From positions 64,001 through 128,000 of IMG/VR virus record IMGVR_UViG_3300050821_002122: DNA of 64,000 nt; one strand, 5' to 3'. Made by a program: the position numbers and the translations under genes. Of this stretch, positions 54,723-64,000 are shown piece by piece. The stretch comes from a virus. The notes under the pieces are model-generated. The model ran no database searches. It was not told the origin of the DNA and worked only from the letters and a program-made list of their open reading frames with translations. Numbering within the stretch: the stretch's first letter is position 1; each line of letters starts with the position of its first letter.

Positions 54723-54914
54723 CTACCCGAGCGTATGTGACTCTGGGTCACTACGTGCTGCGCGCATATGGGTGTCGCCGCAGTTCGCGCAAGGTATCCG
54801 TGCAACGATCTGAAGAATCGTGATGTCGAATTTTGCATGACTGCGATATATGTGACCGCATTTGCATTCGACGGTGTATTCTGGGTATTGGTCTAGGTTG
54901 GTCCAGTCAATCAT
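54723..54914 (-). CDS. Small Zn-ribbon protein
   Basis: CKCG...CANCG; ggag SD before ATG 54914. Confidence 0.55.
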   Translation of the reverse strand: MIDWTNLDQYPEYTVECKCGHIYRSHAKFDITILQIVARIPCANCGDTHMRAARSDPESHTLG

Positions 54915-55437
54915 GATTTCTCCCTGCAGGTTTAGGTAAATATCCCTTCTTATGAAAGATAGTTTTTGCAGCAAAATACGCTGCGCTTGCAGCTTTGGCA
55001 GTGTCAAACCTACCAAGATAGTAATATTTACCGTTGAGACCGATTCGTGACATGAATACCCCATTCAGTTTCGTTACACCAAGCAGACCTGTCTTATTAC
55101 GCCTATGGGCAATTACCTGATTCTGTTGATTCACAGAATTAGTAGTTGCCCTAAGGTTGGACCAACTATTATTTTGCTTATTTCTGTCTTTATGGTCTAC
55201 CATATTTTCAGGGTAGCAACCTCTGACGAATAAATAGGCTAACCTATGAGCTTTATACGCCAATCCATGAATACGAATAACGACATAGCCTTTAGCCAAA
55301 GTACCCGCCGTAGTACCTTGTTTAGCTCTGGTAGCTATCGTTATTCGCCACGTAAAAGAGCCCGTAAGTTTGTCATAACGTAAAAGCGACATAAGCTCTC
55401 GGCGAGACAACTCATTTTTCTTTTTGAGTTTTGGCAT
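54907..55437 (-). mobile_element. Free-standing HNH-AP2 homing endonuclease
   Basis: YD..TG.FTW, AHRLAY, VDHKDRNKQNN..NLR, G..GV, YLGRFDT...A..AY; AT-rich. Confidence 0.85.
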
Positions 55438-58311: not shown

Positions 58312-59310
58312 TTAGAAGTACTTCGATTTAATTTTGGCGAGAATCCATTCTGGACAGCTACCTGGGTCCCACAAACTAACGCCTGCTTCTTTTGCTGCCT
58401 TGCTCGGTTCTGCTTCGTCAGCGAATGGAATGTAGGGGCTACCCTTTATCTTCCACAAGCGCAGGACCTTGACATCGAACATTTGCTTCAGCGACTCGTT
58501 CAGTTTCGTGGTACAAGCTATACCTGCGCAATCGCCGTCCATGAGCAACACAACTATCTTGGCACCACTAAGCTCAAGTATTTTTGTCTTCGTTGCGGTC
58601 CAACTTTGAGTACCCAAGATACACATCGCAGGTATTCCGTAGGCCAACAAACGCAGCGCATCGCGGGGACCTTCTACCAAGACTATAGTACGCGACTTCA
58701 TTTTGCGCATCATCTGGACGGAATAGTCATACGGGAACAGCCCATGTGTCTTGGACCATACGCCCTTGGAATTGATGTAAGACGAATACTCAGCATGCTT
58801 TTTCAAGCGTGCTTTTATGTAACCCTTGAGATTACCATTGACATAAACTGGTAGCCAAATCTTCTTGACCTGCCACCCGTAGTCTGGATGGTTGACCTTA
58901 CAAAACTTGGCGCCCAACGCAATCAACAGATTCGTAGGTATCTCTCTCCACCGTTTATTTGCCGGCAGCTTGCTATAAACAATCTCTTCGTCTTGGATTT
59001 CGTCTTCGTTTGCTAATGACATGACGGCCGTATTGGCAAACTCATCCTGCGGCTTCGATGGACCGAAGGGTTTCAGACCAAGCAAGGGAGATACCTTATT
59101 CCAAGTTGCAGTTTCGCCACACCCGTAACATTTGAAATAAGGACTGACCAAATGAGGTCCGTGGTAGATACGACCACTTGGGGTCTTCTCTGCGTGGAAG
59201 GGACAAAGCACGAATGTCGAATCGGGTATCTTCTTTGTCTCGCCGCTGTACTGCGCAAGCTGATCGAGTACGAACTGCCGCTTGCTGTCTGTACCAACAT
59301 AATCGTTCAT
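58312..59310 (-). CDS. DNA primase (CHC2 zinc finger plus TOPRIM)
   Basis: CPFHAEKTPS...CYGCG; LVEGPRDAL; MDGDCAG. Confidence 0.9.
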   Translation of the reverse strand: MNDYVGTDSKRQFVLDQLAQYSGETKKIPDSTFVLCPFHAEKTPSGRIYHGPHLVSPYFKCYGCGETATWNKVSPLLGLKPFGPSKPQDEFANTAVMSLANEDEIQDEEIVYSKLPANKRWREIPTNLLIALGAKFCKVNHPDYGWQVKKIWLPVYVNGNLKGYIKARLKKHAEYSSYINSKGVWSKTHGLFPYDYSVQMMRKMKSRTIVLVEGPRDALRLLAYGIPAMCILGTQSWTATKTKILELSGAKIVVLLMDGDCAGIACTTKLNESLKQMFDVKVLRLWKIKGSPYIPFADEAEPSKAAKEAGVSLWDPGSCPEWILAKIKSKYF

Positions 59311-59993
59311 GAGTAGTTTGGAACGTTTGGGTCTTTGTAAAGAATCTGCTCCAGTGCGTTAGCAGACCTCAGAACATTGAGGTAATCACTCGGAAATTTC
59401 CGACGCAAATTCCACCAGCGCGCACAAATATTTTGCGAGTGAATGAACAACGATCGGTTCAACAAAAGCGGAAGGGGGAACAGAATATAGCGTTGGTGCT
59501 TTTGAGCCACCAGAGTCGCCTTCAGATCGAAGGTGGACCACGTTAGGCGCACTGACTGATCCTCCGCGTCAAAAATCAGATTTACGTAAAGTGGTCGCGA
59601 ACCCGCAAACAGATAAAAGCTACCGCTCACTGGTTCGACTTCCGACTCTACACTAGCTATATTTACTACCGCAGTCAAATCTGGTAGTTGAGCCTGTAGT
59701 TGCCCCAACTTATAAAGTTGACGACAGCCTGGCCAAAGAGAATCAAGTTCTTCCAACCCTTTCACCAATGCCTCATGCTCACCGATGCATGATACAACCA
59801 TCCGTTTGAATCTTTGTGGCAGATATATGTCGATTGGTTTGGCCGTTGTTGCCTCTTGCCATGATCCTTTGTTCCTGTCCACTATGTGGATACCCGTACG
59901 CATGTACGGTACACTTAGGTTGAGGGCAAACGGGTTTATTTTTCCATTGGAGTATAGAACAAGACTTCCATACAGAGTATCAGTGTAGTTCAT
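59307..59993 (-). CDS. Hypothetical protein
   Basis: 228-aa ORF coupled to primase. Confidence 0.5.
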   Translation of the reverse strand: MNYTDTLYGSLVLYSNGKINPFALNLSVPYMRTGIHIVDRNKGSWQEATTAKPIDIYLPQRFKRMVVSCIGEHEALVKGLEELDSLWPGCRQLYKLGQLQAQLPDLTAVVNIASVESEVEPVSGSFYLFAGSRPLYVNLIFDAEDQSVRLTWSTFDLKATLVAQKHQRYILFPLPLLLNRSLFIHSQNICARWWNLRRKFPSDYLNVLRSANALEQILYKDPNVPNYS

Positions 59994-60351
59994 TGGTTGA
60001 CCTGTTATAGTTTAGCCGCATACCACTAAGTTCAGAGCCGTAAGTCAACGCCCAGGCGACTGGATTTGTCAGATCGCAGTCGCCCTCATAAAGCATGGTG
60101 AGCATTTCCCTAACAACGTCTTGAACTTGGATTTCGCTGGCAGCCCAGAATATGAAATTTAGGACTTCATGTTCAAAAATAACGAACCGCGGGCTAGAGG
60201 CACCCGCAGCAAGTGCAACGGTAATACGAGTATTAGCCCACGGGCTAACCAACTCGTCAACGAACAGCATGTAAATCTGTTGGTTCAAATGGTCCGATAT
60301 ATAAATCCTGTCTACCTCTACCTGTTCTATGCTGTAGCGGCTTCCTTGCAT
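59980..60351 (-). CDS. Hypothetical protein
   Basis: 123-aa ORF overlapping polymerase stop. Confidence 0.5.
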   Translation of the reverse strand: MQGSRYSIEQVEVDRIYISDHLNQQIYMLFVDELVSPWANTRITVALAAGASSPRFVIFEHEVLNFIFWAASEIQVQDVVREMLTMLYEGDCDLTNPVAWALTYGSELSGMRLNYNRSTNELH

Positions 60352-63300
60352 TTAGACTCCTTGCCCTTATGAATGTAGATTGGCCGGATAGCTTCTACAA
60401 TCTGCTTGTCCAGGTCGCTCACATTCAGTAGAGGATAATGTTTTTGTAGCCAATGACGGCATTTTTTATTAGCCCAAGGTTTGAAGATTTCTTGTAGCAC
60501 ATCCTGTTCGGTTCTACCATCAGCCAACAGGCCAAGCTCTGCCGCTTCTTTTATAGAAGCCTGTATGCCAGAAACAATACTAGGTAAAGACCAATCCCAC
60601 TTATGAGTAATGTCATCACGCGCCCCAAACTCCAACTCGATCTCAGGCTCTACCGGAAACTTGAAGTTGAATTCACGTTCGTAGGCCTCAGTTACACCGT
60701 AAGTTGCACACCACTGGAGAATATGTGCATATGGAATAACCATAGCATACGGCACCGAATAGTAGTTCGCATCGTGAACGGCTCGATTGTACGGCACACG
60801 TAACGACCATGCGTCATATTCAATACCCAGCAGTTCGCAAATCTGAGGCAAACGTTTGTAATAGTGTTCCATAATGATGCGACCAGCTTTGACGCCAATC
60901 TCGGATGCCCAACCTTGGATTGGGGCATTGGAACCTCTACGCACTTGCTGCGCAATGATCTTCTTATCGCCCGTCATTGCAGCGAATAGGTGACGAATAC
61001 GACCGATTGGCGAGAATACGATGTACAGTTCTTCCGCCATCTTTTTCGTCTTGTTGGTCCAAGCACCAGCCTTCTTGAACTCAGCAAAGATTTTGTCGAT
61101 AAGACCTTGAGCGAACGGTGTGCGATCCTCCGCCAGCAAGTCCTTTAACTTCTTCTCGGCCTCAGCAGCCACCTTAGCAGGTGTCTCTTTGTTGCCAATC
61201 GTTGACATCAGTTCCAGCTTATCACCAGTCTTCGTGTCTTCGCCCAAGGTGGCCGCAGACTTACCGTAAATCAGACCGAAGATAATAGCCTTAATCGCAT
61301 CACGAAGGGGATGGTCTTTATCCACGATCTTGTTTAGCAACCGCTTCACGTTCAGGATATGGATATCACCGCGCAACTTTATATCAGCTAAAGCCTTTAC
61401 ACTTGGATGGCGGTAATCACCATCATCTTCGGCCATTGAATACATACCATCATTTGCGAATTCTGCATGATACTTCTTCGCAGCTTTGACGTAGGCCTTA
61501 TGTGCCAATTCTTGTGAGCCAAAGACACCTAAGTGCTTTACCTTTTTACGTGGACTCGGTTTTATCTGTGCTACCCAACTGCCTGCTTTCGGCCCAGGAT
61601 AAACACCTTTGTAACCAGAGCTAGTTTTTGTGGAATCAGTTCTGCGGTTTCTTGAATTCTCCAACCTAGTTGCTGGTCGTAGATTATTAATGCGATTGTT
61701 AAACGGATTGTTGTCTTTGTGGTCTACTTCAACTGGAAGGTACCCGTAAACCAGCAAAAAGGCTATTCTATGTGCTCTATACAACTCACCATTTAGGGAT
61801 AGGTACCACGAATCTTTACGTTTGGAGCCTGCCACACTTCCTATAGGTGTATTGCGGCTGCGAGCTTGTTTCCAGGTGAATTTTCCACTATCTGGGTCGT
61901 AAATAAACCACTCATCCATGAGTTTTTTTAGGTCTTTATCTTCTTGCGGAATACCAGGGATAGCTATATATGCCTGCCGCAATTTCTGACCAATGCGGAA
62001 AATACCAGCCAGCACATCGTCAAGTCCAACGTAAGACCACACACGTACCTCATGCGCGGAATAATCGTAACGCATGAGCAGATAGCCCTTAGGCGTAATG
62101 AACATGTGCTTGATGATCTTGGCCAATTTACCACGAGATGGAATCGTTTGCAAGCTTGGGTTCTTCGATGCCAGTCGCCCTGTAGCGACATCGAAATACG
62201 AATAGTCGGGTCGCAGATGATGGTCTTCAATACTGTCCGCATTAGAGCGGAGTTTTTTCAGCCAACCCTTAGCATAGGTGCCCAGCAGCTTAGAGAGTTT
62301 CGAGTAATCACCGTAGGCTGCTACGACCTGATTCTTATCCTTGTTGGCGGCAACAAAGGCTTTGTCGACCGACGATTCACCCTGCTTGGTCGTGTTGACC
62401 GGCTCGTAACCCATGACATCGAAGAATAGAGTACGCAAGTGATTACCCTTGCTAAGACTCAATGCCCAATTCAATGCCTTGGCTCTCGCTTTGCCGAACA
62501 GTCCTTTGGTTTTCAAACCGCTCTTAGCAAGTATGATATCGTTTGCCTTCACCGCCTCCGGGAACACACGGAATGCATTGCTGAGATTTTTCATCTCAGT
62601 ACGAAGCGGACTTTCTGTGGAGGTGAGATACTTCAGGTACTTCGCATCTATCAAGGACCCATCTTCGCGCAGGTGACTCAGTTGATGGACGGTATCGGAC
62701 ATTTGGTACTGCATATGACGTACGAAATACTCACCATAAGGCTTACCATCGATCAGCTGGTGATCTGCCATCTTGATCTGTTCTTGGCGCATTGCGAGAA
62801 TCGATACTACGTCCATGGCGGCATAGCGCAAGAAGTGCTTGTCGTTGGGCTTGATGTTACCGCAAGTGTTGCGATCTTCCTTGCTGAACTTCGTAGTCTC
62901 GCGGTAGTAGAAGTCGTTGCGATAGCTGCATAGCACAGCAGCCAAGTTACCTGGCTTTGATCCGAAGTTCGACAGCTCGACGATATTTTCATCGAGGTCA
63001 TGCTCACCCGCGATGATATCCCATGCGCGGTGTAGAATGATTGGTATCTTGAAATAGCGACGTATGACTCGCAGATCGTAGGGACCGTTAAAGAACACAA
63101 ACTCTTTAAGACCCTTCTTTTCTGCCTCACTGAAAAATGCCTTCAGTTCACGGCGTATGTATGCAAGTTCCTCTTTGGTCCACGGTGTCATTGGGTGGCT
63201 CAATGGAAGCACGTACCCGACGTCGGGATTCAATTCGGTGGCGAACTGCATCGTGTAGATTTTATTGAAGTGGACTGAGAGGTCTTTAGTCTCCGTATCC

Positions 63301-63992
63301 AATGCAATAGTCTTCGACTTGCGCAGGCGTACCATCAGCTTGTCGAATAATTCTATGGTGCCGATGTACTTAGGTTTAGGTTCCACGTGACCAATGTCAT
63401 GCGGATGTTTACCCAGCAATAGATTGTTCAAGTGTCTGCACCAGAAGCCCAGCAGATTGGCATACTTACCGTCTTTCTCCAACAATCGGCTGAAGTCCAA
63501 CGTCGATACGACTTTCAACTTCAGATCATGCGACTTGAGGTCATGGACCCATCCGCGCTTGTAGGTATGCTTCTCTACCTGCGGCCACATAGCGTTCATG
63601 GCTTCGTCACCGGAGACCAGTACATGCGTCGGCTGTAGTTTCTCAATAAGCTTGTGCATGTGGGCAGCGAACTCAAGTTCTGCTTGCTTGCGGGCTTTGC
63701 CCTTCAGGTGAAGGTGCCGTTTCTGATTGAAGTTCGCTACTGCGTAAGAAGCCTCGGCTGCACCTTCTTTGTAGGAGCGCACAATACCCCTGGTATACTT
63801 GATCGCGTTCTTGAATGCTGTGTTGACATTGCGGTCTTGAAGCAACCCTCGTGCTTTGAGATCGCGGCCGTCAACCGTTTGTAGGCATACCAGTACGCGC
63901 TTCTTACTTTGCTTCCAGTCAGAGCAACGAGGCATATGCAGATTGTATGCGTCCTCGTCCTCATATGGAAACTTGAATGTGGTCTCAAGCAT
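60327..63992 (-). CDS. polA: Family A DNA polymerase with N-terminal UDG-like domain, 3'-5' exonuclease and in-frame HNH-AP2 insertion
   Basis: LDTET (ExoI), YAAMD (ExoIII), ATGRLAS.NPSLQTIP, DYSAHEVR (motif A), R..IKAIIFGLIYG (motif B), NAPIQG, RAVHD (motif C); aggtg SD before ATG 63992. Confidence 0.92.
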   Translation of the reverse strand: MLETTFKFPYEDEDAYNLHMPRCSDWKQSKKRVLVCLQTVDGRDLKARGLLQDRNVNTAFKNAIKYTRGIVRSYKEGAAEASYAVANFNQKRHLHLKGKARKQAELEFAAHMHKLIEKLQPTHVLVSGDEAMNAMWPQVEKHTYKRGWVHDLKSHDLKLKVVSTLDFSRLLEKDGKYANLLGFWCRHLNNLLLGKHPHDIGHVEPKPKYIGTIELFDKLMVRLRKSKTIALDTETKDLSVHFNKIYTMQFATELNPDVGYVLPLSHPMTPWTKEELAYIRRELKAFFSEAEKKGLKEFVFFNGPYDLRVIRRYFKIPIILHRAWDIIAGEHDLDENIVELSNFGSKPGNLAAVLCSYRNDFYYRETTKFSKEDRNTCGNIKPNDKHFLRYAAMDVVSILAMRQEQIKMADHQLIDGKPYGEYFVRHMQYQMSDTVHQLSHLREDGSLIDAKYLKYLTSTESPLRTEMKNLSNAFRVFPEAVKANDIILAKSGLKTKGLFGKARAKALNWALSLSKGNHLRTLFFDVMGYEPVNTTKQGESSVDKAFVAANKDKNQVVAAYGDYSKLSKLLGTYAKGWLKKLRSNADSIEDHHLRPDYSYFDVATGRLASKNPSLQTIPSRGKLAKIIKHMFITPKGYLLMRYDYSAHEVRVWSYVGLDDVLAGIFRIGQKLRQAYIAIPGIPQEDKDLKKLMDEWFIYDPDSGKFTWKQARSRNTPIGSVAGSKRKDSWYLSLNGELYRAHRIAFLLVYGYLPVEVDHKDNNPFNNRINNLRPATRLENSRNRRTDSTKTSSGYKGVYPGPKAGSWVAQIKPSPRKKVKHLGVFGSQELAHKAYVKAAKKYHAEFANDGMYSMAEDDGDYRHPSVKALADIKLRGDIHILNVKRLLNKIVDKDHPLRDAIKAIIFGLIYGKSAATLGEDTKTGDKLELMSTIGNKETPAKVAAEAEKKLKDLLAEDRTPFAQGLIDKIFAEFKKAGAWTNKTKKMAEELYIVFSPIGRIRHLFAAMTGDKKIIAQQVRRGSNAPIQGWASEIGVKAGRIIMEHYYKRLPQICELLGIEYDAWSLRVPYNRAVHDANYYSVPYAMVIPYAHILQWCATYGVTEAYEREFNFKFPVEPEIELEFGARDDITHKWDWSLPSIVSGIQASIKEAAELGLLADGRTEQDVLQEIFKPWANKKCRHWLQKHYPLLNVSDLDKQIVEAIRPIYIHKGKESKCKEAATA
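61407..61955 (-). mobile_element. HNH-AP2 endonuclease domain (~183 codons) inserted in frame in polA
   Basis: YDPDSGKFTW, AHRIAF, VDHKDNNPFNNRINNLR, SGYKGV, HLGVF...A..AY...YHAEFA; boundaries approximate. Confidence 0.85.
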
Positions 63993-64000
63993 ATGCACCT

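Follow-up and report, generated by a model that had tools for sequence, protein, structure and literature searches.

In this study we analysed a 64,000-nt stretch of viral DNA (the window, whose numbering is used throughout; positions 64,001 to 128,000 of the IMG/VR record IMGVR_UViG_3300050821_002122), in which a family A DNA polymerase gene carries a whole HNH-AP2 endonuclease within its own reading frame. The insert comprises 184 in-frame codons (61407..61958, minus strand), has neither a start nor a stop codon of its own and is missing in relatives of the polymerase. It probably represents a homing endonuclease gene that persists, without splicing, as a domain inside an essential polymerase. 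A first-pass annotation of the window, made from the sequence alone, had suggested either a homing element riding in a permissive loop or a domesticated nuclease serving the replisome as a weapon. The former is favoured by the occupation of one and the same site in nine divergent hosts, by a patchy distribution, by a near-identical pair of occupied and empty alleles, by a recoded block adjoining the insert, and by a foreign base composition at third codon positions (GC3).

The open frame of the polymerase runs uninterrupted, insert included, over 60327..63998 of the minus strand, beginning with a GTG at 63998. The probable start is the ATG at 63992, as in relatives, which defines a gene at 60327..63992 (minus strand) and a protein of 1221 residues (database copy P0002) comprising 3'-5' exonuclease and polymerase domains. 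Pfam recognized DNA_pol_A (120.6 bits) and DNA_pol_A_exo1 (33.7 bits) in this frame, with matches to HNH_3 and AP2 falling between the pieces of the DNA_pol_A match. Motif A (DYSAHEVR; 62043..62066, minus strand), which is invariant in alignments of 17 and of 39 polymerases, is located 28 codons upstream of the insert, and the GDIH motif (61359..61370, minus strand), whose Asp and His are invariant in the alignments, 12 codons downstream. The first-pass annotation had placed a complete HNH plus AP2 unit between these two motifs with no intervening stop codon, and the open frame, the Pfam matches and the alignments all bear this out.

The motifs DYSAHEVR, K..FG..YG and VHDA are conserved in the alignments, i.e. 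polymerase motifs A, B and C are intact, and the model of the polymerase domain (predicted local distance difference test, pLDDT, 78) matches KlenTaq and Bst polymerases at an E-value of 1e-10. The 190-kb record, which is about 80% complete, yielded neither another PolA frame nor any PolB or Pol III alpha. With its motifs intact, and as the sole replicative polymerase found in the record, the enzyme looks functional as far as its sequence can tell.

The boundaries of the insert are given by comparison with empty alleles. Residues 681-864 of the window's polymerase (P0001), i.e. 61407-61958, are missing in the alignment from BcepSaruman, BCSR5, phiRSL1, Motura and many metagenomic relatives. 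The insert is preceded by ...QAYIAI and succeeded by PSVKALADIKLRGDIH, and the sequence found in empty alleles is ...I-x-x-P-(T/S)-D-(E/A)-x-x-K-x-(I/L)-K-x-K-G-D-(I/L/F)-H. One CCN (Pro) codon at the edge could be assigned to either side. If just 183 codons were taken out, two consecutive Pro would remain at a place where empty alleles have one; the insert is therefore 184 codons long, and the span proposed earlier (61407-61955, about 183 codons) was one codon short but otherwise exact. The insertion site lies between the F-x-x-G helix, which follows motif A, and GDIH, in a stretch that Taq polymerase lacks and in which this lineage has about 25 additional residues; the description of the site as a lineage-specific loop therefore stands. 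The insert is also AT-richer than its surroundings, as had been noticed: its GC content is 0.433 against 0.485 for the host gene, and its GC3 0.375 against 0.562. The same tendency is seen in all seven genomes with available DNA, where the GC3 of the insert is lower than that of the host gene by 9-22 points. An exact 10-nt direct repeat (GGTCTTTATC) occurs at 61313-61322 and 61931-61940. Its copies do not coincide with the junctions: the first lies beyond the downstream (C-terminal) end of the insert, at a distance of about 85 nt, and the second within the insert, about 20 nt from its upstream end. The repeat is probably due to chance.

The N-terminal half of the insert is a predicted nuclease. 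HNH_3 matches residues 740-783 with 50.7 bits (cut-off 24.8; E-value 1.4e-13), PHROG 99, an HNH endonuclease family, spans residues 690-861 (E-value 1.6e-55), and the HNH (His-Me finger) catalytic core can be placed at 61650..61781 (minus strand) by the HNH_3 match and by superposition on I-HmuI. Folded alone, the insert gave a pLDDT of 91.2 and a predicted template modelling score (pTM) of 0.82; disorder was confined to the tail. Residues 10-101 of the insert can be superposed on residues 6-96 of I-HmuI (1U3E; Z 8.1, root mean square deviation, rmsd, 2.4 A over 82 residues, 23% identity), which is the best structural match for this half. D79, H80, N88, N92, N101 and N104 (insert numbering) do not vary among the seven embedded copies whose DNA was aligned. 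The motif EVDH..NLRP..N is seen also in two embedded copies known only as proteins, and thus in all nine, and D79, H80 and N104 are invariant in 64 relatives. Read from the aligned ranges of the model, the D-H-N residues of the insert would correspond to D74/H75/N96 of I-HmuI. A Foldseek comparison of the insert model with the PDB gave nothing at an E-value of 0.001 or below, the AP2 matches being weak by this measure; its matches to I-PpoI, another His-Me finger enzyme, were judged unconvincing, and I-HmuI was recovered by an exhaustive VIA search.

The C-terminal half contains an AP2-type DNA-binding domain (61464..61619, minus strand). Its Pfam match (residues 794-845, 28.2 bits) lies under the cut-off of 33.3, while its fold matches AP2 structures: insert residues 105-175 superpose on the AP2 domains of 7WQ5 (Z 8.7) and 2GCC (Z 7.7), and the comparison with 1GCC gave an rmsd of 1.7 A over 49 residues at 35% identity, with a probability of 1.00.

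The insert evidently derives from the family of free-standing HNH-AP2 genes. It aligns from its first to its last residue with a free-standing paralogue of 176 residues in the window (29-33% identity), encoded with its own ATG and stop codon at 54907-55437 (minus strand), where it adjoins a 7-deazaguanine gene block; end-to-end alignment was likewise obtained with free-standing open frames of 157-247 residues. A scan of IMG/VR yielded 27 relatives as separate open frames of 120-247 residues with their own stops, and one embedded copy that had already been found, while a profile search of 1.84 billion representatives returned mainly free-standing or tandem HNH-AP2 proteins together with one terminal fusion. 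Free-standing HNH(HNN)-AP2 genes have been described in phages Xp10/OP1/Xop411, T5 and the RB phages (PMC2248197). They are of the same family and size as the insert, but have their own start and stop codons and stand between genes or split one, whereas the insert is fused on both sides and has an additional C-terminal linker ending in GDYRH. This linker (61407..61451, minus strand), found in embedded copies only, is a tail of 13-15 residues that is disordered in both models; free-standing relatives stop at ...HGxFA..., and the GDYRH-ending tail is all that the embedded form adds. A search for longer proteins revealed no host protein with an embedded insert other than the same polymerases. One protein of 491 residues (P0189) consists of two HNH_3/AP2 units fused N-terminally to a Mom-family DNA-modification protein (Pfam Mom, E-value 2.8e-38), and is thus an in-frame fusion of the same endonuclease family to a phage gene, terminal rather than internal.

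The architecture found in the window is not unique. A junction-region search of 5.8 billion protein clusters returned 505 relatives at an E-value of 0.001 or below, and nine clusters carry the insert, which adds eight further polymerases (P0003-P0010) of the same Pfam architecture. All nine inserts are in frame, occupy the same alignment column and are 183-189 residues long. Among occupied alleles the host polymerases are 30-71% identical and the inserts 41-76%. At the N-terminal junction, the residues IP..D..LK are conserved by way of synonymous codon changes. At the C-terminal one, GDYRH-P is kept in eight of the nine embedded copies, and synonymous codon changes are seen in the six of these for which DNA is available (GGT/GGA/GGC, GAT/GAC, TAC/TAT, CGC/CGA/AGA/CGG, CAT/CAC and CCA/CCT/CCG). 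Between inserts, the proportion of nonsynonymous differences (pN) is 0.18-0.37 and that of synonymous differences (pS) 0.73-0.97, a contrast comparable with that seen in the host gene, or stronger; pN and pS were compared, instead of calculating dN/dS, because synonymous sites are saturated. The kept frame, the synonymous changes at the junctions and the low pN together indicate that the insert is translated in the host frame and selected as protein, and we strongly infer that ribosomes would read through both junctions.

Alignment with relatives also revealed that the insert is not an ancient domain common to all of them, since alleles with an empty site exist. In a FastTree phylogeny of 97 polymerases, calculated without the insert, the nearest neighbour of every one of the nine occupied alleles is empty, and nine changes of state are required, at least eight of them forced by well-supported branches. 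An IQ-TREE phylogeny of 24 sequences requires seven changes for its seven occupied rows, and a tree in which six occupied hosts form one clade is rejected by the approximately unbiased (AU) test (difference in log-likelihood 2822, p 1e-59). The polymerase of the window itself pairs with the empty P0011 (81% identity, support 100). Occupied and empty sites at one alignment column, sporadically distributed, are what is expected of a mobile element.

A recent exchange is suggested by the occupied P0005 and the empty P0115, a near-identical pair which, once 183 insert codons are dropped, differ at 13 of 999 residues (98.7% identity). Six of these differences fall in the nine codons directly after the insert, where TDEIRKELK of the empty allele is replaced by SLRIKQELR. 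At the DNA level, P0005 was compared with another empty allele, P0093 (contigs L013 and L015). Upstream of the insert there is no difference over 214 nt. Downstream, 19 of the first 27 nt differ, and the first 200 nt hold 41 differences, compared with about 1.4 per 100 nt as background. In the window, the recoded block of nine codons (SVKALADIK) occupies 61377..61403 (minus strand), where empty alleles read (T/S)-D-(E/A)-..., and all occupied alleles, including those of different host clades, lack the P-(T/S)-D-(E/A) of the empties. This block is probably a part both of the mobile cassette and of the target site, and the simplest reading of the aligned alleles is that insert and block would move jointly by recombination. 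The idea that the whole divergent tract of 200 nt represents co-conversion linked to the insert was weakened by the finding that variants beyond codon +18 are present also in the empty P0115; just the first nine downstream codons are strictly linked to the insert.

Several observations weigh against homing by an unspliced, permanently fused nuclease. The tree of the inserts is unresolved and does not reject host-like groupings (p-AU 0.27 and 0.41), and the identities of inserts and hosts are correlated (r 0.69). The divergent tract between codons +18 and +60 is partly common to the empty P0115, and the event that separates the near-identical alleles may have been either gain or loss. Inside the polymerase model, the pLDDT of the extra domain is just 50-87, and the incompleteness of the record qualifies the apparent lack of another polymerase. 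Finally, the view that the insert would not be removed is based on missing machinery and on conservation, rather than on observed RNA or protein.

The correlation between inserts and hosts would fit a domain that was once mobile and has since become beneficial, e.g. as a nickase borne by the replisome, which might attack co-infecting relatives or unmodified DNA, or create primers or starts of recombination. Purifying selection on the catalytic residues and on the whole domain over a deep divergence (inserts 41-76% identical) is in line with such domestication, as is the presence in the window of a putative 7-deazaguanine DNA-modification cluster. An intron endonuclease has been described as aiding phage competition (PMC11620839), which also counts in its favour. 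We nevertheless consider domestication unlikely. An empty close relative exists for every occupied polymerase, in one case with 98.7% identity, and the domain is therefore dispensable. Moreover, only nine clusters among the 505 relatives returned by the search carry it, and its GC3 is still foreign. For the more specific proposal of the first-pass annotation, a domesticated weapon of the replisome, no specific support emerged, and it fits poorly with the empty relatives. Selfish homing and a competitive benefit are, however, compatible and not mutually exclusive.

An old insertion inherited vertically, with many losses by precise deletion or by recombination with empty alleles, would likewise lead to correlated identities and to an insert tree that fails to reject the host topology. 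According to this explanation homing has ceased and the frame is kept by the essential polymerase; the saturation of synonymous sites between inserts, which speaks against a recent sweep, agrees with it. Frame-locking alone would not, however, preserve the D-H...N residues or a low pN over the whole domain, and nine occupied alleles scattered over a tree of 97 would need far more losses than gains. Movement of a cassette is also indicated by the nine-codon block, which recurs in different host clades, and by a GC3 that is low in all hosts. We therefore regard purely vertical descent as improbable.

It seems still less credible that the insert is removed by an unrecognized process, acting on RNA or on protein, such as a new kind of self-excising element or a host protease acting at the junction motifs. 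In favour of processing, both junctions bear short conserved motifs, x-I-P-x-x-D at the N-terminal side and G-D-Y-R-H-P at the C-terminal side, and the C-terminal linker is predicted to be disordered. Plain proteolysis would, however, split the polymerase in two and not rejoin its halves. The searches for splicing machinery were in agreement with the initial view that the element is neither an intein nor an intron. Hint, Intein_splicing and LAGLIDADG families had no match at an E-value of 0.1 or below in the polymerase frame (Pfam), and there is no room for a Hint domain, since HNH, AP2 and linker account for all 184 residues. No nucleophile is conserved at either junction: the first residue of the insert is P, G, S, D, E or Q, and that at position +1, after the Pro, is S, T, F, W or L. 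The last insert residues are R-H, followed by Pro, or T-N in one copy, with no conserved terminal Asn. Intron families gave no match at an E-value of 10 or below over 60300-64000 on both strands (Rfam 15, permissive filters), and the whole of the insert is coding and under selection at the protein level. Features of a transposon were equally missing, as neither terminal repeats nor a target-site duplication were found at the insert ends, which share just the CCN Pro codon. An internal start codon was also considered and rejected; the Met at KKLMDEW is present in this phage only, other copies having L, V or F.

An artefact of assembly or sequencing, i.e. a chimeric join or the lost stop codons of a free-standing gene that splits the polymerase, has a negligible probability in spite of the modest depth of the metagenome assembly (word depth 4-7), as contigs from two soil-metagenome runs of two studies, one of which may be the source of the record, bridge both junctions with zero differences, and as the in-frame architecture recurs in eight further assemblies made from different samples, with the P0005 allele having been assembled twice independently (Logan and ENA).

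Homing by a nuclease that remains fused to its host protein, which we prefer, could operate as follows. The insert would be an I-HmuI-like HNH plus AP2 homing endonuclease gene, deprived of its own start and stop codons and placed in the reading frame within a lineage-specific surface loop, at the start or base of the polymerase fingers. The insert would be transcribed and translated from the host gene and stay in the mature polymerase as an additional domain, hanging on a disordered or flexible linker, so that the polymerase could work without RNA or protein splicing. Enzymes of the I-HmuI type make strand-specific nicks near their insertion site. By analogy with these, during mixed infection the domain may recognize the uninterrupted site in the polymerase gene of a related phage, the likely target being the codons for Pro-(Thr/Ser)-Asp-Glu that shortly precede those for GDIH, and nick or cut there. 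Repair with the occupied allele as template would then transfer the insert along with nine or more of the recoded codons that follow it. Occupied alleles themselves would escape cutting, since 552 bp split their site and its downstream half is recoded. A frameshift or nonsense mutation in the insert would be lethal through its effect on the polymerase, and the insert could be removed only by precise recombination with an empty allele; this lethality may explain why all nine copies are intact. That the fusion is an active nuclease, where it would cut, and that homing is the mechanism of transfer are points we infer; the recoded nine-codon block and the divergent downstream tract are indirect hints that the empty allele would be cut and the insert copied in by repair.

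The insert may be compared with several known systems. I-HmuI, I-HmuII and I-BasI have as their host genes the family A DNA polymerase genes of Bacillus phages (SPO1/SP82 literature). These endonucleases reside in self-splicing group I introns and are translated separately, whereas the insert is a part of the polymerase polypeptide; furthermore, the C-terminal DNA-binding modules of the I-HmuI type are not AP2 domains. Inteins with LAGLIDADG or HNH endonucleases resemble the insert in being placed in frame in an essential replication gene in being translated with the host protein and, as is proposed for the insert, in spreading by homing. Inteins splice out, whereas the insert, lacking a Hint domain, conserved junction nucleophiles and a terminal Asn, is expected to remain. 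The closest published precedent we found is the ShiLan domain insertion in DNA methylase genes of actinobacteriophages (Arsenault, Gosselin & Gogarten 2025; PMC11855218). Like the insert, it is a sporadic in-frame insertion in a phage gene, associated with an HNH endonuclease and devoid of detectable intron or intein machinery, and its authors propose, as we do here, that the host protein retains it, in the form of a loop (PMC11855218). The two cases differ in that the HNH gene of ShiLan uses a frame other than that of its host, begins at its own GTG and has its own stop, while the product read in frame with the non-essential host gene is no nuclease; in the polymerase it is the complete HNH-AP2 nuclease that is read in frame, without a start or stop of its own, and the host is the replicative enzyme. 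In the literature outside subscription journals, we found no other in-frame, unspliced and complete homing endonuclease inside a polymerase.

Judged by its polymerase, this soil jumbo phage has as its nearest named relatives other jumbo phages, namely BcepSaruman/BcepSauron, BCSR5, phiRSL1 and Motura, with identities of about 50%. Relatedness is detectable at the protein level only, as megablast against named phages gave no match. The source record is a viral contig of 189,689 bp with an estimated completeness of 80%. Next to the polymerase, at 58312-60351 of the window (minus strand), stand two small open frames (123 and 228 residues) and a gene for a DnaG-type primase, and this order is kept in BcepSaruman, phiRSL1, BCSR5 and metagenomic relatives. 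The two small open frames have no Pfam family in the precomputed annotation of any relative.

In two insert-bearing relatives the polymerase is broken downstream of motif B. In P0009 (L012:4001-7716) the gene is represented by abutting open frames of 966 and 271 residues, and in P0006 (L010:4001-9272) by frames of 932 and 295 residues that are about 1.5 kb apart, the gap being occupied by a DUF7487 gene on the opposite strand. Many relatives of about 750-800 residues may likewise be N-terminal fragments, and gene splitting may thus have a second hot spot in this polymerase family. Upstream of the polymerase, the same two contigs encode proteins with classical inteins, namely a PIF1/AAA_30 helicase with LAGLIDADG_3 (L010:1-2431) and an SNF2-like protein with Intein_splicing and LAGLIDADG_3 (L012:1-2868). 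In the replication modules of insert-bearing relatives, selfish elements of several kinds thus reside side by side.

To our knowledge, homing endonuclease genes are thought to persist in essential genes only by means of self-splicing introns or inteins, or else to lie between genes. It is conceivable, although we hold this more tentatively than the identity of the insert itself, that the polymerases described here represent a third route of homing into essential genes beside introns and inteins, namely through a permanent in-frame nuclease which, being produced in equal number with the replicase, may act at the replication fork on co-infecting genomes and so couple homing, and possibly the exclusion of rivals, to replication. 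Fusions of this type are currently labelled just DNA polymerase I in annotations. If the fusion is made and is active, it would provide a natural insertion site in a family A polymerase together with a site-specific nickase tethered to the polymerase, both of use for protein engineering. It would also mean that splicing is not obligatory for the invasion of an essential gene, a tolerant surface loop being sufficient, and that a selfish gene can be spared the usual phase of decay in the homing cycle by sharing the frame of an essential host gene.

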